This document shows positions 9,340 to 37,085 of a stretch of DNA of 38,692 bases, in pieces. A program made the translations under genes and the position numbers. The notes beneath the pieces are model-generated. The model had not been told where the DNA came from. It ran no database searches and worked only from the letters and a program-made list of their open reading frames with translations. Each line of letters begins with the position of its first letter. Position 1 is the first letter of the stretch. This stretch comes from a virus. Lineage: Duplodnaviria > Caudoviricetes. Location: positions 1 through 38,692 of the IMG/VR virus record IMGVR_UViG_3300020441_000430. One strand, given 5' to 3'.

Positions 9340-10632
9340 TTATCTCTTTTTAAGGTTTAATTGTGCTTCTTTCCATGCAGTTGCATTTTTGTTACCAGGA
9401 AATGCAGAAACCCATGTCATCATCTTAGAGTATAGTCTAGTAGTTTTTTTCTCTAGCGCAGATAAAGTATCGTCATTTGTGATTGTCATGAAATCTTTAC
9501 CAAACAATGTCATCATAGCTTTCATATTCTTTTGAACTTTTTCCCACTCACCTTGAACAATTGCAGGCGCAAGTTTTCTTGGTCTTGCCTCGTTTCTCTG
9601 TTGTGCAAACTCTAAACTTGTATTTACAAAGATCATTTTAGATTCATAACCTAATGCATCTAATTGTTTCTTATAGTTTCTAATTTTAGTTGCTCTTGCA
9701 GATGTTGTATCAAAAATTACACCTAATCGACCTGCGAGATAACCATCTAAAGCTTTTGCAGTTAGATTTTTTGCCCTTGTTCTGATAGGTTCTTTGACTG
9801 GTTCAGGCGTTGTTCTCAAATCTAAACTAAGACCTGCCTTTTTTAAACCATTTTCAAATGCTTTGTCTGAGTTTACCTTTTTTAAACCTAAAGTTGATAG
9901 TGATAGACCATCAACGACTGTAGATTTACCAGAACCAGGACCACCCATAAGAAATACTGCCTTGAATATGCCTGGGTCATATACACCCTCTGTAATCATG
10001 TCTTTCATCATATATTCAGGTAATGTTCCTTCTGCGATGCCCATGCCTTTACGGACATCTTTGTATAATTGTTCTGCCTCTCTAGTATTTCTGGTCGGCA
10101 CACCTTGTTTGAATGAATCTAAGTCGCCCTTTTCTGCGAATGCTCTCATCTTACTTGCACTCATGCCTGATACATCATCTGCATCTGCATCTCTCTCACC
10201 TGCACTAACGATTTCTATATTATTAAACTTATAAAAACCATGACGACCTTTTACTGAGTTATATTTCTTTAGTAATGTATCAAACTCTCTGATTCTATCT
10301 GAACCTACAACCATGTATATGTCTCGATATCCTTGATTGTATAAAGCAGTTGCGATATCAAATACAGTTCTTGCACTCACATCTGGCACACCTATTTTTT
10401 TACCAAAAAACTTTCTGAGATATTTTACTTTGACTTTATGTGGTAAAGGATTCTTTTTCTTATCATTAGAATGTGATGTAAATATCATCGGGTCACCACC
10501 TGCCGTTCTCGCAACTTTAGATAATCTCTCTGCTAATTTTGCATGACCTGTTGTGGGTGGGTTAAAGCGACCAAAAGAAAAGACTGCTGGCCTATCTTTT
10601 GCTTCTCTTAAAAATTTGTGATATGTCTTCAT
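9340..10632 (-). CDS. cytidyltransferase-like nucleotidyltransferase fused to P-loop (zeta toxin/PNK-like) kinase
   Basis: FGRFNPPTTGH (HIGH-like), VVGSDR and MSASKMR motifs; C-terminal FLMGGPGSGKS Walker A and later RN..R.R lid motif. Confidence 0.8.
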   Translation of the reverse strand: MKTYHKFLREAKDRPAVFSFGRFNPPTTGHAKLAERLSKVARTAGGDPMIFTSHSNDKKKNPLPHKVKVKYLRKFFGKKIGVPDVSARTVFDIATALYNQGYRDIYMVVGSDRIREFDTLLKKYNSVKGRHGFYKFNNIEIVSAGERDADADDVSGMSASKMRAFAEKGDLDSFKQGVPTRNTREAEQLYKDVRKGMGIAEGTLPEYMMKDMITEGVYDPGIFKAVFLMGGPGSGKSTVVDGLSLSTLGLKKVNSDKAFENGLKKAGLSLDLRTTPEPVKEPIRTRAKNLTAKALDGYLAGRLGVIFDTTSARATKIRNYKKQLDALGYESKMIFVNTSLEFAQQRNEARPRKLAPAIVQGEWEKVQKNMKAMMTLFGKDFMTITNDDTLSALEKKTTRLYSKMMTWVSAFPGNKNATAWKEAQLNLKKR

Positions 10633-10955
10633 TTATTCTTTTCCTTAGTCTTCTTCTTCATCTTGTCTATGTATTTTCTATACACAGCGGCTTCTGATGT
10701 TTTACCCATTTCTCTTGCTCTTTGTTCCATTGCAACAGCGGCCTGTATTTTGTGTGCATGTTTTCTGCCTGAGTTTTCAATTTTCTTTACACTTGCCTCA
10801 GCAGTTGCAACATCTTTAAAACCTAAACCTTGTATTGTATCTTTAGGATTTTCATCTGTATATAAATCAGAATGTTTCTTAGAATTTGCAGGTTGACCTT
10901 TCTTTCTAGGTATTCTAGGATTATCTTCTTCTGTATATTCTCTAAACGACTTCAT
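10629..10955 (-). CDS. conserved hypothetical protein with capsid-targeting-like leader
   Basis: MKSFREYTEE start; DLYTDENPKDTI.GLGFKD motif. Confidence 0.6.
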   Translation of the reverse strand: MKSFREYTEEDNPRIPRKKGQPANSKKHSDLYTDENPKDTIQGLGFKDVATAEASVKKIENSGRKHAHKIQAAVAMEQRAREMGKTSEAAVYRKYIDKMKKKTKEKNK

Positions 10956-15764: not shown

Positions 15765-16231
15765 GCGTATTTGGCGTTGCCTCTAAGTGCAAAGTATAGA
15801 CCACCAACATATAAACTGACATGTAGATAGTCTTTATAGATTACATCCCATAGACTAGCAGGACTCAGAATCCATATAACACCTGTTGCAATACAAGTCA
15901 TAGTGATACCACTAAAACGAGTCAACAAATCTCCTAGTTCTTCTGTAATATTTCTAAATTTAGGTGAATATCTGCCGATTCTTGCAATAAAGAAATGTCT
16001 AGCATGCCATGGTATGAGACCAAAAAGTCCACCTACAATCAAACCTATAGCAGAACCAATCTCACCATATGTGACAAACCACCATACGATATATGGCAAA
16101 CCCCATGCCTCTGCTGTTGCACCTGTGACAGGAAGTTTACTAAGACCTTGTTGCAAGAACATTGCAGATAATGGTATTCTTAAAAAGAATGTGGCAATCG
16201 GTGCCGATATTTTAGGTATTATCTCTCTCAT
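15761..16231 (-). CDS. DoxX-family membrane protein
   Basis: LRIPL...F...G..K and E...AIGLI.G motifs; several TM segments; start moved to ATG 16231. Confidence 0.7.
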   Translation of the reverse strand: MREIIPKISAPIATFFLRIPLSAMFLQQGLSKLPVTGATAEAWGLPYIVWWFVTYGEIGSAIGLIVGGLFGLIPWHARHFFIARIGRYSPKFRNITEELGDLLTRFSGITMTCIATGVIWILSPASLWDVIYKDYLHVSLYVGGLYFALRGNAKYA

Positions 16232-16664
16232 ATGACCAATAATAATGTTCGTTCTCTTCGATATAAGGACCTTTTTCAAATCCCCATTTTGTCATTATAC
16301 CATTTGCAGCTAGATTATCTTTATGTGTGTATGCATGTATTCTATCATGATATTGTGTGACGATAGGCATTATTAAATCCATAACACCTTGATTTTGATA
16401 TGTAAAATGTGTGCATACATCTATTGCTAAACATGATAATTCATCATCAAGGTCATCCACAAGATGAAAATCATTCACACATATAGAACCAATCCAATAA
16501 GCAATAGCAATATCATTTTCATCTACTACTACAAATGAGTCTGTTAAATTTTTACAAATAAACAACCATGTGTCAGCACTAAATCTTTTCTCACTTGAAT
16601 GACTTTCATGTTGAACTTTCCAACATGCCTCCCAATCTTTCTCCTGTATTCGTCTAACTTGCAT
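16212..16664 (-). CDS. GNAT-family acetyltransferase
   Basis: YQNQGV acyl-CoA motif and N.AA......WGF motif; likely start ATG 16664. Confidence 0.7.
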   Translation of the reverse strand: MQVRRIQEKDWEACWKVQHESHSSEKRFSADTWLFICKNLTDSFVVVDENDIAIAYWIGSICVNDFHLVDDLDDELSCLAIDVCTHFTYQNQGVMDLIMPIVTQYHDRIHAYTHKDNLAANGIMTKWGFEKGPYIEENEHYYWSYERDNT

Positions 16665-16839
16665 TTGCCATGATTTCATCTAACTGATCTGGTGTCAAAT
16701 CAGTTTTCAATTCAACAGTAAATGTATCTTCATTTTCATTGTGTGTCACAATAAACGGTATCTCGGTACCTGCCTCTTGTAATATACCGATGTTCTCGTT
16801 GAACTGTCGATAGTCATCTCTACTTAAAGTCGCAATCAT
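16654..16839 (-). CDS. hypothetical protein
   Basis: 61 aa; overlaps both neighbours; AGGAG SD. Confidence 0.55.
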   Translation of the reverse strand: MIATLSRDDYRQFNENIGILQEAGTEIPFIVTHNENEDTFTVELKTDLTPDQLDEIMANAS

Positions 16840-17465
16840 ATTGGTAAAACTCCTCTTTCTTCTACTTCTTTATTCTCAGGAAATAGTGTAGAAGGTTCAT
16901 CTATTTCCCCACTCTCAACTTTCTGATAGTGAACAAAATCTCTCCAGAAATCTTTGATTGATTTATGTATGTAAACTTTTGTTTTGCCAATCCAATTACC
17001 TTTTTTATCTCTGTAAATATATTTGTATTCATAAGTTATAGAACCGTCAGCATTTCTACTATGAATAGATGCAGGTCTCCCTGTATAATAACATCTAGGT
17101 GCTGTGACTTTCTTACTCATTGTTTCGCCTAACAAATTTGTTACCTGTTCACCTTTTAGATCGACTAGAGATTCTTTAAACTCTGACTTTTCAATCAAGT
17201 CTAAGACTTCTTCTGGTTCTACTTGCCATGTCTCTGAACCACTTGTAGGTTGACCAAATTCATTTTCCATTAAGTGTTTAAGTTTATTCTCGCACATTGT
17301 TAAAGAGTGCATAGATTTACTTGTATCTATTCTTAAAAACTCTTTAAGACCACCAGCAGTCGATCTGTGTGTCAACATTCTATCGTCTATGTCTTCAGCT
17401 TTTCCTATTTTGACATGGGGAAGTCCATCTTCATCCCAATTACAAAAACCATATAGACCTATCAT
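16836..17465 (-). CDS. GIY-YIG/T5orf172-like nuclease-domain protein
   Basis: LYGF...VKIG.A....DR...E....H....SETW pattern in N-terminal half. Confidence 0.55.
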   Translation of the reverse strand: MIGLYGFCNWDEDGLPHVKIGKAEDIDDRMLTHRSTAGGLKEFLRIDTSKSMHSLTMCENKLKHLMENEFGQPTSGSETWQVEPEEVLDLIEKSEFKESLVDLKGEQVTNLLGETMSKKVTAPRCYYTGRPASIHSRNADGSITYEYKYIYRDKKGNWIGKTKVYIHKSIKDFWRDFVHYQKVESGEIDEPSTLFPENKEVEERGVLPI

Positions 17466-18739
17466 CGACCAACCTCACCAAGATATTTTGCTTTCGTTTC
17501 TGCCCATGTCATGAAACAAACATCATCATAGAACAATGTCTCTGTAAGGTTTGTTCTATCATTCTTAACTAGATTATTAATTCTCTTTCTTGCATACTTT
17601 TCTTTCCAGAGTTCTGATAGTGCCTCTGTTGATGTGTCAAAAGACTTGACTAAATCTTTTTCTTCTATCTCACCTCTAAGAAACTCTCGTGAGTTATCAT
17701 AAAGTGTAGAATAATATATGCCTCTTTGATGTTCTGACTTAATAATATCTTTTGGTATTTTAAGTTGTGAATAAATGAACTGTCTCATACGATTTCTATG
17801 GTCTCTCTTTAATGTTTGTCCGTTTTCTCTCTTTGCAACATATAACATAAAGTATCTATCATTGTAATGTTTCTCTGCATATTTTAACATTTCTTTCTCT
17901 GTTTCTTTTGTCAACTCATATGATAAAGAACCTTGACTGTAACCCATTTTCTTCCAGTGTTTGAGTCTATCGTATTGTGATAAACCACCTGTTTTAGATT
18001 TACCATACAGTGATGTAGTTGTCACACTAACAAGTTTATCACCGTAGTTTTCTTGCCATTGATTCTGTATATCATCTGATAAACAAAGTAATGCAAGTAA
18101 TTTACCACCTGTGTAATTGAAACCTAGTGGTTGTAATGGCACTATTGTAGAACCAATACAAGAGTTGTTTAGTTTGCCACTATTTGTTTTGTATTCTCTT
18201 TCCCACCCTATAAAATTATCTCTTGGTGTTAGATCAATAAAATCACCTGTGATACAAATTACACCTAGATATTTACCTGAGACTTTATCTCTGACTAAGT
18301 AATGTAGATTACGCCCTATGTTTGAACTATTCTTCATAGTAGAAGTAAATGTTCTTACACAATTCCATTTCTCTGTAAGAGAACCAGCAGATTGTCTGTC
18401 TTTAATTGAATCTGTATAAATTAATTCTGGTTCTAGTTTCTCAAAGTCCATAGGGTCTTCTGGAAACCAAATGTTATTCTTACTCTCATTGATGAGTTTA
18501 ATATGGTCTTCATTGATTAATTGTTTCTCAGCACCAAAAAGTGTGCCCATTTCTTGTGAAGGATATCTTTGTTGTATTTCTAGATACTTTTGATAGAGTG
18601 TATATTCACCAACAGACATCTTAGAAACATATGATAAGTCATCTATAATCTTTTGTCGAAGATCATACTTAGACATAACTTCTTTCTCGACATAGTTTGC
18701 CTGATAGTCATCATATTGTTTCTGAACAAATGGTTCCAT
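17462..18739 (-). CDS. DUF4338/DruA-like protein
   Basis: GR.L.YLV.D..SGKYLGVI, PRD.FIGW, IVP.QPLGFNY.GGKLLAL and TTSLYG...SQY motifs. Confidence 0.7.
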   Translation of the reverse strand: MEPFVQKQYDDYQANYVEKEVMSKYDLRQKIIDDLSYVSKMSVGEYTLYQKYLEIQQRYPSQEMGTLFGAEKQLINEDHIKLINESKNNIWFPEDPMDFEKLEPELIYTDSIKDRQSAGSLTEKWNCVRTFTSTMKNSSNIGRNLHYLVRDKVSGKYLGVICITGDFIDLTPRDNFIGWEREYKTNSGKLNNSCIGSTIVPLQPLGFNYTGGKLLALLCLSDDIQNQWQENYGDKLVSVTTTSLYGKSKTGGLSQYDRLKHWKKMGYSQGSLSYELTKETEKEMLKYAEKHYNDRYFMLYVAKRENGQTLKRDHRNRMRQFIYSQLKIPKDIIKSEHQRGIYYSTLYDNSREFLRGEIEEKDLVKSFDTSTEALSELWKEKYARKRINNLVKNDRTNLTETLFYDDVCFMTWAETKAKYLGEVGR

Positions 18740-22213: not shown

Positions 22214-23011
22214 TTATGTTAAAAAAGAATCGAGACTTGCGTTTCCGAACTTATCTTCTATCTTATTTACATTTCTACTATTAAACTCTTGAAAATCTTT
22301 ATTGTATATAAAAGGTATTTCACTTACTGGTGTCCACTCTTTTTCACCTGGCGCCATAACTTTCCATTCTAAGTTGTCATCTTTTGGATAGTTTATAGTC
22401 CAATCTACTGTTGAGTTAGATAGATACTCTCTATCATCTTTATTGATCGGGTAAATATATTTGTATTGTTTACCTTTGACTCTTTTTAAATTTAAGTCTA
22501 TTCTCTGTTCGTAATTTGGTCTATGGCCATATTTTTTACCATCTGTATTAGGTAAAAGACCTTGCATAGTTCTAGGGTGAACTTTCTCACCATTCTCTGT
22601 CACATATAAATCTGTTTCAGAAAAACCACCATATAAAAAGTTTGCAGATTGATAAACATATCCAACTTTACCTACTATGCCATCTGCCCATGTAAACAGA
22701 TATCTAATTCTTAAATGTTTTCTAATCCATTTTACAACTAGAGATAACATCTGACTCTCTGAATTTTTAGGCATATTATCTGTCATCGCCATCTTACCTA
22801 TCTCAAAGTAATCAGCAGATGTTAGTTCTGGAAATAAAACTTGTATTGTATGTTTTGGTCTGGTGCCCCACCCTAATGATAATACACCTACTAACTCGTC
22901 ATCGACATAACACCCCAACCAATGTTTTGTAAGTTTAGGTATTATTGGTGAGTAATGCCACTTCTGTAAAAATAAAGTTGCAACTCTGTAGTCTACTTCT
23001 TTTATTATCAT
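22214..23011 (-). CDS. Mom-family (GNAT-fold) DNA adenine modification protein
   Basis: WHYS near N-terminus, E..KM......PKNSES..LS, TWAD...G..G.VYQSANF.Y.G motifs; overlaps the gp43 stop. Confidence 0.7.
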   Translation of the reverse strand: MIIKEVDYRVATLFLQKWHYSPIIPKLTKHWLGCYVDDELVGVLSLGWGTRPKHTIQVLFPELTSADYFEIGKMAMTDNMPKNSESQMLSLVVKWIRKHLRIRYLFTWADGIVGKVGYVYQSANFLYGGFSETDLYVTENGEKVHPRTMQGLLPNTDGKKYGHRPNYEQRIDLNLKRVKGKQYKYIYPINKDDREYLSNSTVDWTINYPKDDNLEWKVMAPGEKEWTPVSEIPFIYNKDFQEFNSRNVNKIEDKFGNASLDSFLT

Positions 23012-25518
23012 GAGAAGAAACTGTCAAGTGATGCAACAGGTTCTACATTCCAATTGATTAACTGAACAATATTTTTGAGTGGTTCAACAAATGATTTATC
23101 GAACTGCATATCATAATCTACAAATCTATGTAAGTCAAATTCTTTAGGCAGAACAGATGTAAATGAGATCACATTCTCATTGATAGGATTAGGTGTCGTA
23201 AGATAAGTAAAGTGTATCTTCTCACCGTTTTTGATTGTTTCATATCTCATGTCTAAACTCTTTTCTCTGAGATGATGATTAAATAGTAATGAACCTCTTA
23301 CATGAATTGGTGTGCCTTTAGAATAAATATTTGTTGTATCTGCATACTGAACTAGACCTTTACACCCTCTAGGAAAACTTGCATCTTCAACTGGCAGATT
23401 ACGAAACTCTTTTCGTGCAGTCTCTACGAACTGCCAAAGTTCTTGTTCATTACCTGTCATTACAACTTTAAGTGCCTCTTCTAGTTTCTTTCTGACCCAT
23501 AACGGCGTTGATGACTTTGCAGTTTCTATACCCATCATTTTGAGTTTAGGTTTTGTAAGTCTAACACCCTCATTGTCATGCACATTTAGAATGTATCGTT
23601 TCTTGGCAGTCCAAATACCTCTGTCTGCAATAACTTCACGACCCATTTCCATTTTCTGTTCGAATGCATTTGTATAATTTGCAAGATCAATAAAACCTTT
23701 TTCTAACACATCTTCTATCTGAACTTCTGCTTTAGATAAGAAGTCAATCACTTTATCTTTTGGTGCATCAGGCAATACTTGATTAACAAGTTTATCTACT
23801 GTAATATAGATTGAGTCTGTATCGATTGCAATTACATAATCTTCATTATCAGTTTTAAGAACTTTGTTTAGATATTCATTACATATCTTTTCTGCCCAAC
23901 GAATCGCAAGTTGACCTGATAATGTAATCGCTTCTGCCATATCAATAGAAAAGAATGCAAAGTATTGATTCGCCATTGCACCATAAGCTGAGTTCAATGC
24001 AATCTTACGAACTTGTTGATTGTTGTATGCCCTCTTAATTAGAGTATCGAGTTGTTTTCTTCTAACAGTATCAGTAGTTCTTTCTTTTTCTTTCTGATAC
24101 TCAATCATCTTACCTTTCCATTTCTTTCTCTCTTCATAAAAAGTTTCCATGAGTTCAGGAAACATACCTTGTTTATCACGAGAGAAAAGAACACCATTAG
24201 GTGCAACGGCAGTGTTTGTTTGTTTACAATATGATAAGTCACATTCTTTGTTTAACATTCTATCTACAGTGACATCTTGACGATTACCTTTGAGCATTTT
24301 CTCAGGCGAGATATTGTATTGCATTATCAAATGTGGATATAGTGAGTTTAAATCAAAAGACATCACCCAATTATGACCACCAACAATAGGTTCTTTTACA
24401 TAGGCACCTACAATAGGTTTATTTTTGTCGTTGCCTGTTTTAAGTCTTTGTGGTGGTGTTTGTATATTCTGGTCTTTTAGAAAGTTATAGATGATTGTTT
24501 CCCAATATTTCACCATGCCGAATGTATCAATGTAATTACACTTTGCACTATAAGCCATTGTGATAATTAGATCAATGAAACCTAATTTCTCTTCTAGTTC
24601 TTCTACAAGAACAACATCTCGAACATTATATTCTAGAAATTTACCATAATCTTGCCGATACAGTGTATGTAAAGAACCGAAATCACTGTAGTCTAATTTA
24701 CCTTTACCTAGTTCAAACTGTGCAATATAATCTAACTTATATGATTCTTGATTATGAAATGTATTCTTACGATATAGTTCTAGATAGTCAACAATATTTA
24801 CACCACTGAGTTCGAAGATTTGATTCTTCTGATAACCCATTGATGTATATTCTCTTGTGTGTGATTGACCCCATGGCGATAACTTCTTATGTTCGTCTTC
24901 ACCTAGAATCTTGTCAATACGATTACAAAGATATGTGATATCAAAACTGTTTACATTCCAACCTGTTATGATATCAAACCATTCTGTTCGCCAATACTTA
25001 ATAAATTTTTGTAGTAAGTCTGTTTCGTTTTTACAATTGTGATAGACTAGATTTTGATTATGTTCCCACGGACCAATGCCAAAGACTTGACATTCTTTAC
25101 CAAAAGGTTTGATTGATATTGCATTAATCTTTTCAGCCGCCAAGATTGGTTCTGGAAAACCATCTTCACACTCACACTCAATATCTAAAGTTGCAGTCTT
25201 GATTAATGATGTATCAAACTTGATGTCACCTTGAAACTTATCTGCAAGATAAGTATAAACATATCTGTCATAACCATGAACTTCGAATCCTTCTACGCCT
25301 GAGTATTTCTCTCTGAATTTACGAGCGCCACCCATAGAGTTAAGATTGACAACTTCTAGATTACGGCCGTCTAATGATTTATAAGGTGACTCAGATTTTT
25401 TAGATAGAATGTAATGATTAGGTCTATAGTTTACTGCAACCTTTTGTTTGGTTTTGCCTTTGTAACCTATGACTAAAATTTTGTCACGACTACGACATAC
25501 ATTCGTATAAAAATCCAT
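23008..25518 (-). CDS. 43: T4 gp43-like family B DNA polymerase
   Basis: DIEC exonuclease motif, SFDLNSLYPH, K...NSAYG, IDTDS, KKRY. Confidence 0.97.
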   Translation of the reverse strand: MDFYTNVCRSRDKILVIGYKGKTKQKVAVNYRPNHYILSKKSESPYKSLDGRNLEVVNLNSMGGARKFREKYSGVEGFEVHGYDRYVYTYLADKFQGDIKFDTSLIKTATLDIECECEDGFPEPILAAEKINAISIKPFGKECQVFGIGPWEHNQNLVYHNCKNETDLLQKFIKYWRTEWFDIITGWNVNSFDITYLCNRIDKILGEDEHKKLSPWGQSHTREYTSMGYQKNQIFELSGVNIVDYLELYRKNTFHNQESYKLDYIAQFELGKGKLDYSDFGSLHTLYRQDYGKFLEYNVRDVVLVEELEEKLGFIDLIITMAYSAKCNYIDTFGMVKYWETIIYNFLKDQNIQTPPQRLKTGNDKNKPIVGAYVKEPIVGGHNWVMSFDLNSLYPHLIMQYNISPEKMLKGNRQDVTVDRMLNKECDLSYCKQTNTAVAPNGVLFSRDKQGMFPELMETFYEERKKWKGKMIEYQKEKERTTDTVRRKQLDTLIKRAYNNQQVRKIALNSAYGAMANQYFAFFSIDMAEAITLSGQLAIRWAEKICNEYLNKVLKTDNEDYVIAIDTDSIYITVDKLVNQVLPDAPKDKVIDFLSKAEVQIEDVLEKGFIDLANYTNAFEQKMEMGREVIADRGIWTAKKRYILNVHDNEGVRLTKPKLKMMGIETAKSSTPLWVRKKLEEALKVVMTGNEQELWQFVETARKEFRNLPVEDASFPRGCKGLVQYADTTNIYSKGTPIHVRGSLLFNHHLREKSLDMRYETIKNGEKIHFTYLTTPNPINENVISFTSVLPKEFDLHRFVDYDMQFDKSFVEPLKNIVQLINWNVEPVASLDSFFS

Positions 25519-26243: not shown

Positions 26244-26535
26244 TCTCTTCCCTCTTCATTTGCTCTTGCATGAGTTCAACTAATATATCACCCATGAGTT
26301 TATTAAGTTCGTTATTATTTAGTAATTCTTCAATTACTTCTTCTGTTGCCTCAACACCGTTCGGCACTCTTCTTATAGTTCGTTTAAAGTTGAGTTGAGG
26401 TTCACCATTTACGAACTGCACATCACCATATTGATAGACTAATCCTTCCCATTCACCAGATACTAATTCTATACCTGCATTTTCTTCGTAAGGATTTTCT
26501 ACTACACGATAAACTTTTTTGAATAACATTGTCAT
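26212..26535 (-). CDS. conserved T4-like hypothetical protein
   Basis: 107 aa; I....G.W.G.VYQYG.V and MGDIL motifs, typical of the gene upstream of gp43. Confidence 0.65.
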   Translation of the reverse strand: MTMLFKKVYRVVENPYEENAGIELVSGEWEGLVYQYGDVQFVNGEPQLNFKRTIRRVPNGVEATEEVIEELLNNNELNKLMGDILVELMQEQMKREENEQRDSKTGN

Positions 26536-27647
26536 CTTATTATATCTATGTCTGGATTTTTATTCCAAACTTCTAACTCCGTTCTCAATCTATTTTCTGA
26601 TTTAAGTTTACTAAATCTTTTACCTGCTAACTTTTTCCACCAAGTGACTATCTCTTCTAATTCAAATCTATCATAGTTAGGTCTTTTAGTTAGTGTATCT
26701 GTTTCTAAGTTAAGATAGTCTGCAACATTATCATATCCGTATGTAGATATAAATGTTCTTTTCTTTTCTGTAAGGCCTTTTGCATCTACGAGTGCTGTCT
26801 TAAATGTTTCTAAATCTTTTCCTTCTAATGAGTTTCTAATAATAGAAATCATTTTTGTTTGTGTTTTTAATTTTCTACTACTTGCATCTTCATCTACAAG
26901 TGGTCCTTTGTTTCTATCTTCAAACCACTTTCTAAGATCGTGGTATTTTTCATCGTTGATTGCAGGCACAAAATCTGATAATGTTAGACCTGCATATCTT
27001 AGAAAAGGTTTCATGCCATCATATTGTGATACTTGTTTTGTAGAACCATATAATGATGTTGTTTCAAACATACAGAAATCTGTATTATATTTTTCACTTA
27101 GAGTTCTTCTTGCAAGATGTGAACAACAAATACCTGCAAGTAATTTACCACCAAGATAATTAAAACCAAAAGGTTGTGTTGGCACTATTATAAAACCCAT
27201 GATAGTGCTATCATTAAATCTCTTCATGACTTCCATGTTTGTTGTCTGTAATGGTCTGCCTAAGAAATCATTTCTAGGTTTAGAGTTAATAGTTGGTGAA
27301 CCGAATCTAATAAAACCTACAATCTTGTTTGTGTTTACCTCGTAGACAACCCACTTTAAACTTTTACCTGGCACTGACTTTTCTATTGCATGTGATGTGA
27401 CTATCTCTAGATAGTTATCATACATATCATTTGATACTTCTCTACAAACAAATTGCATGTCTTCTGGATGCATTGTAAAGTCTTGAAACATCTCGTCTTC
27501 TGGTCCATAACCAAACAAAGGTGTTGGTATATCTTCCATTCTTTCAAGTTTTACTTTACGAAGATAATCATCAATGCGACCAAAGTTCTTATAATAATCT
27601 ATAAAAATCTGTGATGCAAATTGGGCGTCTTGTTTGTTAAGTATCAT
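26532..27647 (-). CDS. second DUF4338/DruA-like protein
   Basis: PG..L...V.E..T.KIVGFIR.GSP, IVPTQPFGFNYLGGKLLA and ETTSLYG...SQYDG; paralogous to 17462-18739; start moved to ATG 27647. Confidence 0.7.
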   Translation of the reverse strand: MILNKQDAQFASQIFIDYYKNFGRIDDYLRKVKLERMEDIPTPLFGYGPEDEMFQDFTMHPEDMQFVCREVSNDMYDNYLEIVTSHAIEKSVPGKSLKWVVYEVNTNKIVGFIRFGSPTINSKPRNDFLGRPLQTTNMEVMKRFNDSTIMGFIIVPTQPFGFNYLGGKLLAGICCSHLARRTLSEKYNTDFCMFETTSLYGSTKQVSQYDGMKPFLRYAGLTLSDFVPAINDEKYHDLRKWFEDRNKGPLVDEDASSRKLKTQTKMISIIRNSLEGKDLETFKTALVDAKGLTEKKRTFISTYGYDNVADYLNLETDTLTKRPNYDRFELEEIVTWWKKLAGKRFSKLKSENRLRTELEVWNKNPDIDIIR

Positions 27648-27692
27648 AAAAAAACCTGATACCATTTTACAACAGTATCAGGTCCTTGTCTA
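27648..27692 (-). promoter_or_regulatory. promoter overlapped by an inverted repeat / terminator-like hairpin
   Basis: TAGACA-17 nt-TAAAAT; arms ACCTGATAC (27654-27662) and GTATCAGGT (27675-27683) followed by a U-run on the minus strand. Confidence 0.55.
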
Positions 27693-27698
27693 GTTGTT

Positions 27699-28208
27699 TT
27701 ATTCAGAATCAGTTAATGCACTTAAAACATTATCTGGTGCAGAGGCCTCATATGGGTCTGTATCTGCCAAGTCTCTCATATCATCTTCTGCAAAGATATG
27801 TTCAACTGTATTATTGTTGATCACCATTGCATATCTCCATGATCTTTTACCAAAACCTAGATTACCTTTTTCAACTAATGCACCAATTTTTGATGTCCAC
27901 TCAAAGTTTCCATCTGGTAATGCTTTTACATTCTTGATGCCTTGATTCTCGAACCATGCATTCATTACAAATGAATCGTTTACTGATAAACAATAAACCT
28001 CATCTATGCCTGCATCTTGAAAATCATTATAGAGTTCTTCATAACCTGGTAATTGTTGAGACGAACAAGTCGGAGTAAATGCACCTGGAAGTGCAAATAT
28101 TAATACTCTCTTTTCTGCAAATGATTGAACAGTATTTAAACTCTGCCAATCATCATCTTGTCTAAAATTAAACCAAATACTAGGTATTGAATCGCCAACA
28201 TTTATCAT
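27699..28208 (-). CDS. peroxiredoxin (Prx5-like)
   Basis: LPGAFTPTCS, SVND.FVM.AW, RSWRYAM motifs. Confidence 0.92.
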   Translation of the reverse strand: MINVGDSIPSIWFNFRQDDDWQSLNTVQSFAEKRVLIFALPGAFTPTCSSQQLPGYEELYNDFQDAGIDEVYCLSVNDSFVMNAWFENQGIKNVKALPDGNFEWTSKIGALVEKGNLGFGKRSWRYAMVINNNTVEHIFAEDDMRDLADTDPYEASAPDNVLSALTDSE

Positions 28209-28227: not shown

Positions 28228-28300
28228 TGGAGCGAGATAGAAGAGTTGCACTTCTATCTCCTAACTGGTAGTTAGGTATTTTGCTTTAAACTAATCTCGC
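28228..28300 (-). tRNA. atypical tRNA-Gly, anticodon ACC, CCA encoded
   Basis: GCGAGAT/ATCTCGC acceptor stem plus U73-CCA; anticodon arm CCTAA-CTACCAG-TTAGG; T-arm AGAAG-TGCAACT-CTTCT; D-loop lacks GG. Confidence 0.8.
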
Positions 28301-28307
28301 ACTTTCC

Positions 28308-28346
28308 ATATTACTAAAGAACTCTATAAATTGCAAGTGGTTTTTT
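28308..28346 (-). promoter_or_regulatory. promoter for the tRNA (AAAAAACCAC class)
   Basis: AAAAAACCAC-TTGCAA-17 nt-TAATAT, ending 7 nt before tRNA G1. Confidence 0.65.
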
Positions 28347-28351
28347 AAAAA

Positions 28352-28762
28352 TTATTTAATTTTTATTACTTGCGGTTTTTCTTCTTCTGGAACTTCTCTT
28401 TCTAACGAGATTACTAGAAGACCATTAACACAATTTGCAGACTTGACTTTGACATGTTCGCCAAGAGTCCATGATCTTTTGAAACTTCTTTCTGAAATTC
28501 CTTTATGGACAAAATCTAAGTCTTGTCTTGTGGTATTGTCGCCTATTACTGTCAATATTGAATCTTTAAACTCAATATTTAATTCTTCTTTGTTGAAACC
28601 TGCCACTGCTAACTCAATGAGATAAGAGTCGTCTGAGGACTTAATCACATTGTAGGGTGGGAAGTTGTCGTTGATATTCGAGATTCTCTCCATGTCTGAA
28701 AAGAGTTTATCGAATCCTATTGAAAACGGTCTGAATTGACCAAATGTATCTATACTTGTCAT
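28352..28762 (-). CDS. hsp20: small heat-shock protein Hsp20 (IbpA-like)
   Basis: IGFD, FPPYNV, IELAVAGF, HKGISERSF.R, NGLL.I.L; AAGGAG SD before ATG 28762. Confidence 0.93.
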   Translation of the reverse strand: MTSIDTFGQFRPFSIGFDKLFSDMERISNINDNFPPYNVIKSSDDSYLIELAVAGFNKEELNIEFKDSILTVIGDNTTRQDLDFVHKGISERSFKRSWTLGEHVKVKSANCVNGLLVISLEREVPEEEKPQVIKIK

Positions 28763-31026: not shown

Positions 31027-31588
31027 AATTATTTAATATCACAAGTGACATAACTGTATTAATACTTCTTATTGATTTTGCAGTCAATCTATCATTATTA
31101 TAATCAATCTGAAAAGCAGGAGTTAATACTGCAACTTTTGTATATAACATACTTCTTCTAGACGGTGTATCACCTAAAAAAGGATTTATTTCTTTAACAC
31201 AATTATATTTAAGTCCACGAGTAGTCGTATAAACATCTGCAAGTTGTAAACCAACAAAGACTGCCCAATCAGCAGGTGTAGGTGGGTCAACTAAATCAAA
31301 TCGGTGTATATATTCGAACCTTTTCTGACTTGCCTTTGACAAGTATCCTATCGACTTCTGTAAATGCTCTTTCTGGACAGAGTTGATAAGTTCGTTCCGA
31401 TAACAACAAGTCCACCCCCTCATAATTGCGTGTTTGTCCTTCGAGTCTAGCACCCAGGTTGACGGCATCTCCGATGACGGAATAGTCAAATCTAAGTTCT
31501 GAACCCATGTTTCCGACAATGCATTCGCCTGAACTGATACCGATGCCCACATTAATAGGAGGCAGGTTAAGAGGTTTAAGTTCTTCAT
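30983..31588 (-). CDS. hypothetical secreted/membrane protein; start uncertain, overlaps cyclase gene
   Basis: LQLADVYTT..GL....E.NP motif (DUF5658-like) in the non-overlapping part. Confidence 0.5.
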   Translation of the reverse strand: MKNLNLLTCLLLMWASVSVQANALSETWVQNLDLTIPSSEMPSTWVLDSKDKHAIMRGWTCCYRNELINSVQKEHLQKSIGYLSKASQKRFEYIHRFDLVDPPTPADWAVFVGLQLADVYTTTRGLKYNCVKEINPFLGDTPSRRSMLYTKVAVLTPAFQIDYNNDRLTAKSIRSINTVMSLVILNNYEVLQKAQRHCEKR

Positions 31589-33137
31589 TTAATTTCTCCG
31601 TTGCAACTAATACTTCTAGTGCAGATTTTACGGCAAGTTCGGCATGGTCTTCACAATCCAAGGGAGCATTCCAAAAACTCATGATACAATCGCCCATATA
31701 CTTGTCAATAGTTCCTTTATTATTTAGTATGATTTTAGTTTGCACATCCAAGAACTTGTTTATGAGTTCTACTAATCCTTCTGGATCATCTTTGTTCTTA
31801 TATGCCTCGCTTATAGGAGTAAATCCGCAAATGTCCATGAACATGAATGTCATTTCTCTTCTCTCACCACCTAGTTTAAGTTTACTAGGGTCTTTTTGTA
31901 GTTCTTCAACCATCTCAGGAGATAAATATTTTTTGAATTGCTTTTTAATTTGTTCTTTGAGTTGATAAGTGATATAGTATTTGTTGAAAGAAGCATGTCC
32001 AAAAACCACTACGGAGGCTAACGATGAGTAGAAAATATCGAAAAGAACGAGTGATGAAGACCACAAATAGAAACCCCCACCCACCTGAAACGCAACGATA
32101 CCTAGACTCGCTATCGCCGAAACAGTTGTGGGAAGTTTGTAAACCGATACCCATATTCCTAAAAGAACTATCAAAAGAAGAGCAACTTCAAGAAATTCAA
32201 AATAGTAGGATTGCTGTATTTGAACTCCTGTCAAAAAGGTTTGGATTTGGTTTGCTTGCACTTCATGGGGATACATTGCACCCATTGGGGTTGAAACTGG
32301 ATTACTCAATCCCTCAGCAGTCAGACCATAAATAAGAATCTTATTTTCAATATCTGATTCTTTTAAATCTGCAAAAGATATAGAATCAAATTGATTCCAA
32401 TATGATATCATAACATCGGCAGTAGATGTTGTCTCTATGGGTTTACTACGACCCATTCTAATCCATTCTATGCCTGCATCTTCTGTGACTCTTGTTTGAT
32501 AATTTCTGTGATCACCCAATGCCCTTAATGTTTCTAATGCTAAACTAGGATAAACTACATCATTCGCCATGACAATAGCAGGAGCGGAACGGATAGTCTG
32601 GTCGAAGTTAGGTGTATTTGGCACTGATGGTGTTGCAATTGTGACACCCATTCCGTATGCAGAATCTTGTAAGAACTGCGTAGGACTTATAAGTCCGTCA
32701 AACTGCCATACATGTTCTTTGATGGCACCACCTCCAAAAACACTCGTGTTTACATAAGGTGCGTTACCTTCACCCGTTTGCGTGGTCGGTGCGGAAGATA
32801 AAACTGTTAATCTATTTTGTAATCCATTTGCAAAGTATTCGTCTTGACCAAATCTATCTTCTTCTGCAAATAGTATATTGAATACATGAGTATTTGAGTG
32901 ATGTGTTTCCCATAATGTATCTGCATATACATCTCTAGGGAATGGATATTGACCATACTTCTCTATAGATTTCTCATCTATATTAACTAGAAGTATATCT
33001 TCTACTTGTTCTTTTTCTTTTGTTGAATGTAGATAATCAAAGTAAGACCATTTGATATTATCTACTATATACGGTGACCAAATCTTTAGCCCTAACAGTA
33101 TCAGCACTGATACTGCGACTGTTTTCCATGAATACAT
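31296..33137 (-). CDS. CHASE2-domain membrane-bound class III adenylate cyclase
   Basis: IDEKS....GQYPFPR (CHASE2), three TM helices, FMDICGF, DKYMGD and GDAVNLGARLE catalytic motifs. Confidence 0.92.
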   Translation of the reverse strand: MYSWKTVAVSVLILLGLKIWSPYIVDNIKWSYFDYLHSTKEKEQVEDILLVNIDEKSIEKYGQYPFPRDVYADTLWETHHSNTHVFNILFAEEDRFGQDEYFANGLQNRLTVLSSAPTTQTGEGNAPYVNTSVFGGGAIKEHVWQFDGLISPTQFLQDSAYGMGVTIATPSVPNTPNFDQTIRSAPAIVMANDVVYPSLALETLRALGDHRNYQTRVTEDAGIEWIRMGRSKPIETTSTADVMISYWNQFDSISFADLKESDIENKILIYGLTAEGLSNPVSTPMGAMYPHEVQANQIQTFLTGVQIQQSYYFEFLEVALLLIVLLGIWVSVYKLPTTVSAIASLGIVAFQVGGGFYLWSSSLVLFDIFYSSLASVVVFGHASFNKYYITYQLKEQIKKQFKKYLSPEMVEELQKDPSKLKLGGERREMTFMFMDICGFTPISEAYKNKDDPEGLVELINKFLDVQTKIILNNKGTIDKYMGDCIMSFWNAPLDCEDHAELAVKSALEVLVATEKLNEELKPLNLPPINVGIGISSGECIVGNMGSELRFDYSVIGDAVNLGARLEGQTRNYEGVDLLLSERTYQLCPERAFTEVDRILVKGKSEKVRIYTPI

Positions 33138-33793
33138 TAATTACCTTGTGTCACATTGACTGTGCAACCACCAACTGTATAACAACTTTGAGTTAGTGTG
33201 TAAGTCTGATTTGTCCCGCCTTGCTGAAGTAAATTTAAAATTGTATGTTCTGACCCTGTTATTGTGATTTGTGCATTATGAGATGCATCGCCTTTCTGCA
33301 TCATTGTAGATTCTGAATCATCTGTATTACCATACCAATATATGTGTGCGTAATGACTGCCTGAACCCTCTTGATGCATATCGTGTTCTACGCCATCAAC
33401 ATGTATATCTATGTAGTGTGTATGCGTTCCGTTTTGATATACATCGACTGTATTAGTATCGCCCCATATATGACGACCATATGTTGCACCATTTAACTGT
33501 TGTATGTTTTCGGTATTATCAACACCATCTACATCACCACCCCAACTCTTACCAGAACCCCAATAAGGAACCCATGAAATAGTATTACCATTTCCACTTT
33601 GTGATAAGTTGAATGTGTTGCCTGCGTGTGCAAAAGAAAAGTCTATGAAATTGCCATATCCTATTTGTTCTATGTTTAAATTGAGATCATCACCACTGCC
33701 AACTTGTTCTACATGAACATGATTGTCATCAGTAGGACCAGCAAATACTGATACTGATAATAAACTAATTAGACTGATTAATATAAATTTCAA
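33137..33793 (-). CDS. secreted curlin-like repeat protein (His-rich)
   Basis: Signal peptide; repeated Q.G..N / I.Q.G units. Confidence 0.7.
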   Translation of the reverse strand: MKFILISLISLLSVSVFAGPTDDNHVHVEQVGSGDDLNLNIEQIGYGNFIDFSFAHAGNTFNLSQSGNGNTISWVPYWGSGKSWGGDVDGVDNTENIQQLNGATYGRHIWGDTNTVDVYQNGTHTHYIDIHVDGVEHDMHQEGSGSHYAHIYWYGNTDDSESTMMQKGDASHNAQITITGSEHTILNLLQQGGTNQTYTLTQSCYTVGGCTVNVTQGN

Positions 33794-34916
33794 TTCCTTC
33801 TCCTCTTCCGAAAGTTATTATGCCTGAGTATCCTTCTACATCTGTTTCTAATGTTCCTGAATTACCAGCGGCTATTATTATATTTATGACTCCGTTTACA
33901 TTACGGAAGAAAACTAAGTCACCATCTTGTTCAAAAACATTGTATTGTGAATCTTTATTGAAACCAACTGTTGCACCTTGTAGTGTAAAAGTAGCGGTGC
34001 CTGTTTGTGCTTGTGTATCTCCTAATGAGACTGTAGTTTTTTCTAGTTCTTCTATGACATCTAGTAAGTCTGTGAGATAGTCAACATCTAAGAAGTCTAT
34101 ATCTAATTCTGAAAACTCCAGATCACCTTTAGTATTTTCAAGTGCATCTTGTTCTAATTCATTAAACTCTAAAAAGTCTACATCTAATATGCCTTGATCT
34201 TGGTCATTTTCATCTTGATAATTTTCTTCTATTTGATTTCTTATTTCTGACGGTGGATTTACAATAAACATATTATCAATTAGATTCGGTGTGATACCTT
34301 GAATGATTACTGATTGTGTAGGTGCTGAATCATATGATGATACTACTGTAGCCGCATATGCCTCTGTTAATACAACTTCGCCACCATCGTTGTATACAAC
34401 TATTTCGCCTGATGATGCACCTGTCTCTTCATCAGGAAGTAAAACAACCATTGTCCTTCCGAGTTCATCGATGGTTGTAGTAAAATCTGTCCCTCTCATT
34501 GTGATGTTTGCAGTTGGTGTTGAAACATCTACATTTTGTTTTTTAATTCTATTACCAGCACCTGAGGCAAAACGAGCAGTGCCTCTGACCATGCTGATTG
34601 CCATTTTAGATTTACTTGGGTCTGGGTCGTAATATGCCTCGTCAATGTAGACAAGACTATTCTCTGTTAATGAAAGTTTCTCTTCGTCTAAAAACTGTAT
34701 TAACATTCTGCCATTAGCAGTTTCGGCTTCATCGTATATGTTTACATCTGTTCCGACATCTGATTGAAGTCGATTCGATTCTCGCACAAGTGATGTGACA
34801 CCTGTAGATTCTATAACACCACCGATGGGTTCGCCATAAACGAACCCACTGATGATTAAAAGACTAGCTATCGTTAGCTGCGTCTTTCTGATTGATTTGA
34901 ATAACACTGTTATCAC
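33765..34916 (-). CDS. FecR-domain protein
   Basis: Signal-like N-terminus; T..GR..I.F.D...L.L.ENS, G..RF.SG, TPTA.I..RGTDF motifs; acidic C-terminal region. Confidence 0.85.
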   Translation of the reverse strand: MITVLFKSIRKTQLTIASLLIISGFVYGEPIGGVIESTGVTSLVRESNRLQSDVGTDVNIYDEAETANGRMLIQFLDEEKLSLTENSLVYIDEAYYDPDPSKSKMAISMVRGTARFASGAGNRIKKQNVDVSTPTANITMRGTDFTTTIDELGRTMVVLLPDEETGASSGEIVVYNDGGEVVLTEAYAATVVSSYDSAPTQSVIIQGITPNLIDNMFIVNPPSEIRNQIEENYQDENDQDQGILDVDFLEFNELEQDALENTKGDLEFSELDIDFLDVDYLTDLLDVIEELEKTTVSLGDTQAQTGTATFTLQGATVGFNKDSQYNVFEQDGDLVFFRNVNGVINIIIAAGNSGTLETDVEGYSGIITFGRGEGIEIYINQSN

Positions 34917-35601
34917 TTGTTATATCTAGTGTGATGTGTGCATCAGGTGAACTACAGGCGTTAGACGCTCCGCTTGCACATGTGCCAGATATCTGATTGA
35001 TATCTACATCAGCACTGTCTCCAGTTAATTCAAAATTTAGCTCTTGTTCGCCATCATTTTGCAAAGTGTTAATGTTGTTTGAGTCACCTGTAATGTCAAA
35101 GTTCCAAACTAAGTCATCAGATTCCCAATCAACATCAAATACATTATTACTTCCAACTAAGATTAAATCGGCATTCAATCTCTCTGCACTGTAGACATAC
35201 CCTTGATCTAAATCAAAAGTATTAGAGTCACCAGTGATAGTAAATTGAATTGATGAATCGTCAGCAGAACCTTGGTAACCTATGTTCCAATCTATGCTGT
35301 TCGAATCACCTGTCAATATTAAATCGTAATCAGAAGAATCTGCGATAACTGGACCGAATAATATGTTTTGGTTACCAATCATGTCTAGATTAATATCTAA
35401 AGACTGACCAGTAATACTCATTGCTGAACCAGAACCACTTGAAAAGTCGTCTCCTCCAACTTTGTTACCAAAACCGATTTGATCAATATATAACTTCAAA
35501 GTGTCACCAGTTTGTGTTATTATAACCTCGTTATCATCAGTTGCTTGTGCGAAAACGAATGATGTCGACAAAAGTAATACTAAACTAAGTATTTTATTCA
35601 T
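34864..35601 (-). CDS. secreted curlin-like repeat protein
   Basis: Signal peptide; DNE..I.Q.GD.L...IDQ.G.GN and repeated ..GDSN.. beta-solenoid units. Confidence 0.72.
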   Translation of the reverse strand: MNKILSLVLLLSTSFVFAQATDDNEVIITQTGDTLKLYIDQIGFGNKVGGDDFSSGSGSAMSITGQSLDINLDMIGNQNILFGPVIADSSDYDLILTGDSNSIDWNIGYQGSADDSSIQFTITGDSNTFDLDQGYVYSAERLNADLILVGSNNVFDVDWESDDLVWNFDITGDSNNINTLQNDGEQELNFELTGDSADVDINQISGTCASGASNACSSPDAHITLDITSDNSVIQINQKDAANDS

Positions 35602-35605
35602 TTTC

Positions 35606-36619
35606 TTATCCCCTTATATTTTCCAAAGGTTCAGGTATCTCAATATCAATGTCATCATCATTCGATTCGTCAATCTCATGTAATTCGTTGGTGCCATCGC
35701 TATTATGTGGATGCCTGTGTCCTTCGTCAATAACCCAATAGCCTCTATCATGACCTTGGTAAATTAATTCCAACACGGCAGCTTCAATAGCCACTCGTGT
35801 TGCGTAAGTCACTGACTCATTATTTCCCACTCCGTCCTCGAATTCGACTAACTGTGTTCCTTCTTCTATGAATCGGAATACATCGCCTCCTTCACCGACT
35901 GAAAGGATAGTCTTTCTAGTCTGGACATTTAATAAAACTTCGCCTGTTAGAACTGATACAGCTCTCATACTTACAGTGACGGCATCTTTACGATACTGTC
36001 TACTTACTCCAATCCCTAATGTTCTGGCGCCTCGACCACCAGTATAAAGATTGGAATCATAACCAACAATACCACCCTCTATTATAATACCTGCAAATAG
36101 GAGTGGATTTAATTCTTGATACTTGTCTTGTCCTTCTTTTTTTGCAAAGTCTTGCCTTGCACTTCTAATAATTTGTCTCTCTCTAACTAAGTGATCTATG
36201 CCATTTCTTTCTACAACTCTAAACCATTTATTACCACCAGCAGTTTTCAATGCATCAATCACCATAGGTGTGCCACCTTGTGTGACTGCTGTAGAGAATG
36301 ATGCAATGTTTGGTAATTCTTTTCTCTGACCTGTTAAGTCTTGAAACTTATATACTGCCACTACAGGCATCTCTTTTGCAGGTGGTAAATCTAACAATTC
36401 TAAAAATGAAGGAAGTCTAATAACTTCTGCCTCGTCTACACAAATGTATGGCATTGCTCTTTCAAAAGTTCTGCCAAGTGCCTTTGCGTAATTCACTAAG
36501 TCATGGTTATACTCTTCTCCCCATGTTCTAGGATTACAATCTTGTGGGTCACTAGAAAACTTGGGGACTGATGCACAACCAGATAGTAGAATTGTTAGTG
36601 CTAGTAAATACTTAACCAT
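35606..36619 (-). CDS. csgG: curli secretion channel CsgG-like lipoprotein
   Basis: Lipobox LLSGC; VAVY.F.D.TGQRK, FSTAVTQG, WF.VVER.G...L..ERQIIR, EGGIVGYD; start moved to ATG 36619. Confidence 0.9.
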   Translation of the reverse strand: MVKYLLALTILLSGCASVPKFSSDPQDCNPRTWGEEYNHDLVNYAKALGRTFERAMPYICVDEAEVIRLPSFLELLDLPPAKEMPVVAVYKFQDLTGQRKELPNIASFSTAVTQGGTPMVIDALKTAGGNKWFRVVERNGIDHLVRERQIIRSARQDFAKKEGQDKYQELNPLLFAGIIIEGGIVGYDSNLYTGGRGARTLGIGVSRQYRKDAVTVSMRAVSVLTGEVLLNVQTRKTILSVGEGGDVFRFIEEGTQLVEFEDGVGNNESVTYATRVAIEAAVLELIYQGHDRGYWVIDEGHRHPHNSDGTNELHEIDESNDDDIDIEIPEPLENIRG

Positions 36620-37085
36620 CAGGATCTTGTCCGAAGTTTCCAGTTCCAATTGGTATTTCAATGACTGTTTCAGTTCCGTCAGAACCAGTAATTGTCATTC
36701 TAATATACTCTGAACCATCTTCATTTGTAATCACTTCATATGTGACTACATTTCCTTCTAGTGTGAAAGAACCAAATCTAACAGAACCATCATTTGAGAA
36801 CATAGATTCAACCAATTGTTTTGCCATTTGGGCATAGATTCTTGATTCTAAGTTCCTGATAAATTTTGCTAAGGTTGAATTATCTGCCTCTCTTTCAGCT
36901 GCCTTTCTAGCAGCTTCAAGGGCGTCCTCGATTTCTTTTTTTCTTGAATGTTCTTGGTTTTCTATGGTTAGATAGTGAGCGCCTTGGCCTTTTCCTGAAA
37001 AGCTAGGGTTCTTAAACTCATGAACAATAGGTGTCGCAAACAATGTTGCGCTTAAAAATAAACTACTTAATATTATTATCTTCAC
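36612..37085 (-). CDS. csgF: curli assembly protein CsgF-like
   Basis: Signal peptide then F.NPSFSG motif; F..NLESRIYAQ....L; adjacent to csgG. Confidence 0.85.
   Translation of the reverse strand: MKIIILSSLFLSATLFATPIVHEFKNPSFSGKGQGAHYLTIENQEHSRKKEIEDALEAARKAAEREADNSTLAKFIRNLESRIYAQMAKQLVESMFSNDGSVRFGSFTLEGNVVTYEVITNEDGSEYIRMTITGSDGTETVIEIPIGTGNFGQDPDG

Follow-up and report, generated by a model that had tools for sequence, protein, structure and literature searches.

A degenerate tRNA-Gly(ACC) beside a DUF4338 gene in phage DNA: a candidate glycyl donor for DNA modification

Why would a phage keep, as the only tRNA gene in a long stretch of its genome, a tRNA-Gly that lacks the features of an elongator tRNA? 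The gene lies in the window (the whole 38,692-nt stretch of Caudoviricetes DNA that was analyzed), a 38.7-kb fragment that represents about 23% of a virus genome and includes T4-type replication genes. DNA near-identical to the window is present in marine metagenomes.

The tRNA gene and its neighborhood

The sole tRNA that ARAGORN calls in the window is tRNA-Gly(acc), and the Rfam tRNA model agrees (RF00005, 53.1 bits, E 1.8e-9). This gene and the features around it are:

28228-28300, minus strand: degenerate tRNA-Gly(ACC), 73 nt, CCA encoded (ARAGORN and Rfam RF00005)
28308-28336, minus strand: promoter-like element TTGCAA-17-TAATAT, 7 nt before G1 (read from the sequence)
28352-28762, minus strand: Hsp20, the upstream synteny anchor
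27699-28208, minus strand: peroxiredoxin, between the tRNA and the GNAT gene
26532-27665, minus strand: DUF4338/DruA-like protein (PF14236, phrog_19197), predicted GNAT fold
23008-25518, minus strand: T4-type DNA polymerase B, downstream of the tRNA

A first, sequence-only reading had drawn attention to the ACC anticodon, the TGCAACT T-loop, the D-loop without GG, the A49-U65 and A51-U63 pairs, the perfect stems and the encoded CCA, and all of these are found. The acceptor stem (7/7), anticodon stem (5/5) and T-stem (5/5) are fully paired, the discriminator is U73, the T-stem begins A49-U65/G50-C64/A51-U63, position 55 is G, and positions 32 and 38 form a C-G pair. Both canonical elongator features, i.e., G18G19 in the D-loop and a TTCRANY T-loop, are missing. 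In the minimum free energy fold the anticodon arm closes fully, to 7 bp and a 3-nt loop (z -3.2), as had been noted; the argument that such a loop is unsuited to decoding is weak, and we dropped it as proof, because 107 of 110 tRNA-Gly(GCC) can pair in the same way. Only the C32-G38 pair sets the window tRNA apart in this respect. Assembly error, the explanation that would have undone the earlier reading, is ruled out by three runs from other studies (X7, X11, X14), whose contigs span the tRNA without any difference in it; in a fourth run (X12) it is covered only in two pieces. RNA runs contain 0.44-0.69 of the region's words. When the tRNA region was searched with blastn against cultured phages, only 30-nt matches were obtained, all outside the tRNA, and a scan for the exact anticodon arm gave three matches, all due to chance and in coding DNA.

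The tRNA had also been credited with its own promoter. The element upstream scores 8/12, which is below the threshold of the promoter scan (hence it is not listed there), and it is conserved in six orthologues. However, relatives without the tRNA still have a similar promoter-like element at the same place, so that it looks like an operon promoter rather than one belonging to the tRNA. Judging from this arrangement, the tRNA would stand first in an operon and be transcribed with hardly any leader; in orthologues, 7-11 nt separate the end of the -10-like hexamer from G1, and thus the 5' leader may be almost absent. The peroxiredoxin gene is probably a bystander, because it also occurs in relatives that lack both the tRNA and the GNAT gene. 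The DNA polymerase gene downstream places the module in the replication region. Elsewhere in the window (31296-37085), genes for a CHASE2-adenylate/guanylate cyclase, a FecR-like protein, a curlin-repeat protein, CsgG and CsgF stand in a row that is common to relatives.

The claim that ACC is almost absent among bacterial tRNA-Gly is borne out by a search of 185,579 GTDB species genomes, in which we found 54 pattern matches to prokaryotic A34 tRNA-Gly, 35 of which pass a stem filter. Viral stretches, searched with a pattern that requires an encoded CCA, hold about 120 ACC genes versus about 6,800 TCC and about 3,800 GCC. Almost all of the viral ACC matches are cloverleaves (118 of 120, 55 of them distinct), and they fall into two groups, canonical tRNAs in large arrays versus solitary ones. 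Members of the canonical class (L027, L038, L056, L064, L068, L098 and others) occur in arrays that reach 25 tRNAs, in many cases next to tRNA-Gly(TCC), and are probably real A34 decoders. Many of these array tRNAs have no GNAT gene with them.

Glycine identity and likeness to non-proteinogenic tRNAs

The bacterial glycine identity set (taken from PMC9976931) is intact in the window tRNA: G1-C72, C2-G71, G3-C70, C35, C36 and U73, plus CCA. A known kind of tRNA for comparison is the staphylococcal non-proteinogenic (NP) tRNA-Gly, whose T-loop contains TGC or TGT and whose T-stem has A49-U65, U50-A64 and A51-U63, and which binds EF-Tu weakly and feeds Fem transferases (PMC7826273). Like NP1-3, which work with FmhB, FemA and FemB, the window tRNA has TGC for TTC in the T-loop, A49-U65 and A51-U63, and a calculated T-stem energy for EF-Tu of -9.5 kcal/mol (from the additive pair-energy table of PMC3239215, by which bacterial Gly tRNAs average -10.8 to -11.0), and in both cases the proposed role is that of glycyl donor to a GNAT-fold transferase. 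It differs in being phage-encoded, in its anticodon (ACC, with TCC and CCC in relatives, instead of UCC), in having G50-C64 where NP has U50-A64 (an energetically equal exchange) and in its partner, which is a DUF4338 protein and not Fem. There is no Fem-family match among the 58 window proteins. By analogy, the window tRNA likely works like a staphylococcal NP tRNA-Gly but is not a member of that class, which, according to PMC7826273, had to date been found in S. aureus and S. epidermidis only.

Five of the 35 stem-filtered prokaryotic ACC genes lie on Salinicoccus or Lacicoccus chromosomes (L471, L481, L485, L497, L498) and combine the exact staphylococcal NP T-stem with the lack of GG; from these features they are likely NP tRNAs with an altered wobble base. 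Both genera have glycine-rich cross-bridges. The NP T-stem of these ACC genes suggests that A34 arises once a tRNA-Gly has been freed from decoding.

An alignment of 14 homologues, most of which come from the same site behind hsp20 or from beside the same GNAT gene, favors selection over decay, as had been proposed from the perfect stems. Paired cells make up 98% of the total and compensatory changes on both sides occur at 14 of 23 pairs, versus pairing of 40%-51% in slid controls (because the aligned homologues are related, this shuffle figure is not a probability). G1-C72, C2-G71, G3-C70, C35, C36, U73 and CCA are invariant in all 14. What varies is position 34, which is ACC or TCC at the same site and A, U or C across relatives, and is thus free as the earlier reading had expected. 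T-stem and T-loop also vary, and the anticodon loop keeps the pattern CT-NCC-AG. In one orthologue (L575/L605, 69 nt) the T arm has collapsed to a short hairpin and the T-loop is lost. The closest orthologue has a near-normal T-loop, TTCAAAT, and the TGY triplet is not kept there. An invariant identity set alongside a drifting T arm and position 34 indicates that features for charging are kept while those facing the ribosome drift; the suspected poor fitness for decoding agrees with the free position 34 and with the collapsed T arm.

GNAT-fold genes beside the tRNA

The best-supported partner of the window tRNA, judged from gene neighborhoods, is likely the DUF4338 gene. Among 39 hsp20-anchored loci, a tRNA-Gly accompanies DUF4338 in all 17 that have this gene; behind hsp20 of the other 22 there is no tRNA-Gly. 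Four syntenic relatives (L570, L571, L572, L574) lack both, at two separate sites around the peroxiredoxin gene; because they form one nested clade, this co-loss is one event, possibly a single segment replacement, and identity of the peroxiredoxin to that of the window drops to 63%-65% in the clade. In a forward test, a DUF4338 gene was found within 1 kb of 11 of 42 distinct ACC tRNAs, versus 1 of 74 TCC and 0 of 76 GCC (Fisher p 5e-5 and 4e-6, not corrected for kinship). Counted by flanked loci, a homologue is near 23/79 ACC, 2/76 TCC and 0/83 GCC. It lies on either side of the tRNA in different lineages, as close as 9 nt.

In the reverse direction, 17 of the best 80 DUF4338 loci carry a tRNA-Gly (seven ACC and ten TCC), in 16 cases within 1.3 kb, and one further locus holds a cut copy; no other tRNA is above the ARAGORN threshold. 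An intact tRNA-Gly was not seen at the remaining 63 of these 80 loci, many of which have short flanks, and DUF4338 was found in none of three near-complete ACC records. The link between the tRNA and DUF4338 is optional. A scan of the collected loci that was blind to the anticodon, part of the loci having been retrieved with Gly patterns, identified 70 distinct cloverleaves no more than 1.5 kb from a GNAT gene: All 30 beside DUF4338 and all 16 beside PF22559 are Gly, and the 19 others are array tRNAs beside Mom genes. As a separate observation, CCGG (log2 -2.5 versus -0.25) and AGC are depleted in 20 DUF4338 loci compared with eight without the gene, in uncorrected figures confounded by host and kinship. 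For this reason, k-mer depletion was set aside as an indicator of a modification target.

An AlphaFold2 model of the DUF4338 protein (77 sequences, pLDDT 92) has a GNAT fold, and the top 50 structural matches are nearly all GNATs. In a comparison with 48,161 chains, the best match is Mu Mom (8bv8; Z 10.1, rmsd 3.4, 165 aligned residues), although ordinary acetyl-CoA GNATs (9.8 and 9.6) lie less than 1 Z below and so tie with it, and FemA follows at Z 8.9. Foldseek with the model returned nothing at E<=0.001. By Pfam, the protein matches PF14236 only and not the Mom family, PF25680. HHalign of DUF4338 against Mom was not significant (probability 0.7%), nor were the comparisons between the three GNAT families considered here, and thus DUF4338 differs from Mom in lacking significant profile similarity, the likeness in fold being that of a predicted model. 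DUF4338 has been called a GNAT that may target proteins (PMC10853773), and a cyanophage homologue has been labeled structurally Mom-like, with acetyl-CoA assumed and no activity assay reported there (PMC12801897); the passages concerned in these two papers tie the DUF4338/DruA family to no tRNA. Mu Mom itself transfers glycine from Gly-tRNA-Gly to adenine N6 in double-stranded DNA (PMC13219725), and thus shares with the arrangement proposed here the GNAT fold, Gly-tRNA-Gly as donor and phage DNA as target. It accepts all three E. coli isoacceptors and so draws on the host supply, and a phage-encoded donor tRNA is not mentioned in the passages of PMC13219725 that describe it.

The window also encodes a Mom-family protein and a second DUF4338 protein:

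22214-23011, minus strand: Mom-family protein (PF25680, E 4.7e-48; 8bv8, E 4.6e-17)
17462-18739, minus strand: another DUF4338 paralogue (identity to the first about 30%), with a T5orf172 gene after it

In a pairwise alignment, the window Mom keeps H58, Y59, S124 and D149 of the Mu protein, and R111 and R151 are replaced by K73 and I112, respectively. In Mu Mom, R111K strongly reduces activity and R151A is inactive (PMC13219725). On these substitutions, the window protein may belong to a clade with different chemistry. It is possible that it is a second user of the tRNA, and the same holds for the DUF4338 paralogue. As the main partner, the window Mom was rejected. Mom is present in 5 of 50 ACC records (50 of the 120 ACC loci were searched) and 0 of 49 TCC records (p 0.056), Mom was found in none of 5 records searched for it, and the complete phage Melnitz-1 has Mom but no CCA-bearing tRNA-Gly. 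In addition, five relatives keep the tRNA and DUF4338 with no Mom behind the polymerase, from which it follows that the tRNA tracks DUF4338 and not the window's Mom. The stretch at 16212-18739, in which the DUF4338 paralogue is followed by the T5orf172 gene and by a GNAT with a weak Pfam match (PF13302, E 1e-3), could, from its gene content, be a modification-plus-nuclease module.

Similar tRNAs occur beside other GNAT families. The solitary ACC tRNAs of L032, L069, L087 and L101 adjoin a gene in which a DNA adenine methylase-like domain is fused to a GNAT domain (PF22555+PF22559), with ParB next, and in a model of the PF22559 domain Mom is tied for the first structural match (Z 10.3). In an independent scan for this fusion, 34 of 46 loci (34 of the 38 with at least 250 nt upstream) have a tRNA-Gly, with anticodons CCC, TCC or ACC; no other tRNA type is found at the ARAGORN default threshold, and the shuffle background is one per 4.9 Mb. 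Degenerate tRNA-Gly genes also lie directly behind true Mom genes in L019 and L020, one of them with the window's own T-loop. In L019 the Mom gene is flanked on both sides by such a tRNA (9917-9987 and 10788-10859), and L524 has a tandem pair of tRNA-Gly before the fusion gene (1478-1626). A 446-aa unannotated ORF, the neighbor of the tRNA in L029-type loci, matches nothing in the window.

The tRNAs linked to GNAT genes were compared, as a set of 51 distinct sequences, with TCC (72) and GCC (101) controls; it should be noted that the 51 are related and were in part retrieved with Gly patterns. The D-loop GG is lacking in 34 versus 2 and 2, a C-G or G-C pair at 32-38 is present in 22 versus 0 and 0, position 55 is not U in 19 versus 3 and 5, and position 33 is not U in 5 versus 0 and 0. 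The mean calculated EF-Tu energy is -9.58 versus -10.46 for TCC and -10.73 for GCC, in a set where 4 of the 28 "weak" T-stems are of the G49C65/G50U64/G51C63 type, which the additive model mis-scores. The glycine identity set is complete in 51 of 51. Their anticodons are ACC, TCC or CCC, never GCC.

Proposed role, alternatives and cultured phages

On balance, and with moderate confidence, we take the window tRNA to be a dedicated non-proteinogenic glycyl donor for Mom-type DNA modification by the DUF4338 GNAT. The host GlyRS would charge it, given that it retains all known bacterial identity elements. Its weak T-stem, together with the broken elbow, would then exclude it from EF-Tu and the ribosome, as is the case for staphylococcal NP tRNA-Gly, and the GNAT would accept its glycine, much as Mu Mom uses Gly-tRNA-Gly. 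The acceptor would be a base or base adduct in new phage DNA, and the modification would protect that DNA from host nucleases. A34 itself would not be the function but a side effect of the tRNA's release from decoding.

The tRNA could also supply glycine to the GNAT for a different acceptor, i.e., a sugar, a host envelope component or a protein, in the manner of Fem, MprF or L/F transferases. The fold search establishes only a general GNAT fold, with FemA not far below Mom, a protein target has been suggested for the family (PMC10853773), and uncharacterized and cytidylyltransferase-like genes are often beside the tRNA in relatives. We nevertheless regard this as unlikely: in both families that were modeled Mom ranks first or shares first place, DUF4338 genes in cultured phages sit among gp43, the clamp loader and regA, the third family is joined to a DNA adenine methylase-like domain with ParB following, and the same kind of tRNA flanks true Mom genes.

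An explanation by translation, which we consider quite unlikely, is that unmodified A34 reads GGU, the main Gly codon of the phage (in 35 window genes, 400 of the 633 Gly codons are GGT), or the whole GGN set. A34 mutants of tRNA-Gly do decode all four Gly codons (PMC10853795), and canonical ACC tRNAs exist in large arrays. However, GGT use does not follow the anticodon across relatives: Orthologues at the same site have TCC at similar GGT use (0.56 versus 0.54-0.64), and where the tRNA is missing the GGT share is still 0.49-0.56. It is the GNAT gene that the tRNA goes with, and neither the orthologue with a collapsed T arm nor family members with non-U33 loops fit a decoding role.

The sequence-only reading had offered an anti-defense role, as a decoy for anticodon nucleases or a species resistant to them, to which tRNA-Gly acetylating toxins may be added; it named neither a partner gene nor a part in donating glycine. 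There is some basis for it in the recognition of U73 and G71 of tRNA-Gly by TacT (PMC9976931) and in the absence of GCC among the 51 GNAT-linked tRNAs. A replacement tRNA has to work in translation, and the GNAT-linked tRNAs have lost ribosome features. There are reportedly published phage tRNAs that escape defenses aimed at tRNAs (PARIS, retrons), and they are a precedent with altered loops like those seen here. Those tRNAs are understood to translate; the window tRNA differs from them in losing ribosome-facing features and in being tied to a GNAT gene and not to a tRNA array. We find the anti-defense role very unlikely, because of this co-occurrence and because the deviations cluster at EF-Tu and elbow sites. 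Nor would a decoy be expected to lie next to three GNAT families, on one side of the gene or the other, or to have an anticodon loop that is conserved while the T arm drifts. That the gene is a relic (a pseudogene, an RNA processing signal or a passenger in a mobile hsp20-GNAT segment) is the most improbable of all, since, even though the co-loss could be a single segment swap, in keeping with the lower peroxiredoxin identity, the paired stems with changes on both sides largely refute decay, the identity elements and CCA are invariant, and the tRNA is upstream or downstream of the GNAT gene depending on lineage.

Both parts of the favored arrangement, a glycyl-donor tRNA read by a Mom-type GNAT, have precedent in NP tRNA-Gly and in Mom, and their pairing on a phage would be the new element. 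A full-text literature search, outside of which most subscription papers fall, found no phage-encoded donor tRNA-Gly paired with a GNAT. More tentatively than for the local role, we suggest that three distantly related GNAT families (DUF4338/DruA, Mom and PF22559) are repeatedly paired with a private, translation-blind tRNA-Gly in a widespread RNA-plus-enzyme system of DNA decoration, that DUF4338 proteins, including DruA of Druantia, are aminoacyl-tRNA-dependent DNA modifiers that would place undescribed bases in abundant SAR11 phages, and that many such tRNA genes are unannotated. If true, this would give a concrete non-translational reason for the long-standing question of why some phages keep a single tRNA, and would extend NP tRNAs beyond staphylococcal cell-wall synthesis. 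Gly-tRNA would be the predicted co-substrate of two phage GNAT families, of which one also occurs in the Druantia defense system, and a natural tRNA that is chargeable but evades EF-Tu would be a useful donor for tRNA-dependent transferases.

Several cultured phages (HTVC008M, Mosig, Argie, Sting and Clawz) are ready test systems. The complete genome of Pelagibacter phage HTVC008M has DUF4338 at two places and no Mom, and its sole Rfam tRNA match is a degenerate, unannotated tRNA-Gly(ACC) (KC465899.1, 91140-91213; L608:1501-1574). The pelagiphage Mosig, also complete, has a DUF4338 gene and a similar degenerate tRNA-Gly(ACC). In five complete cyanophages with DUF4338, the only tRNA-Gly is a near-canonical one with anticodon TCC, so that the host's or an ordinary tRNA must suffice there, as it does for Mu. 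In mycobacteriophage Argie, a tRNA-Gly stands directly before the fusion gene, and its relative Taptic is said to have a single tRNA-Gly. The Gordonia phages Sting and Clawz have unannotated tRNA-Gly-like genes immediately before the methylase-like/GNAT gene (approximately L521:3322-3395 and L522:3324-3397), which were missed by ARAGORN and read by eye; their anticodons are CCC and TCC, and their T-loops are far from the consensus.
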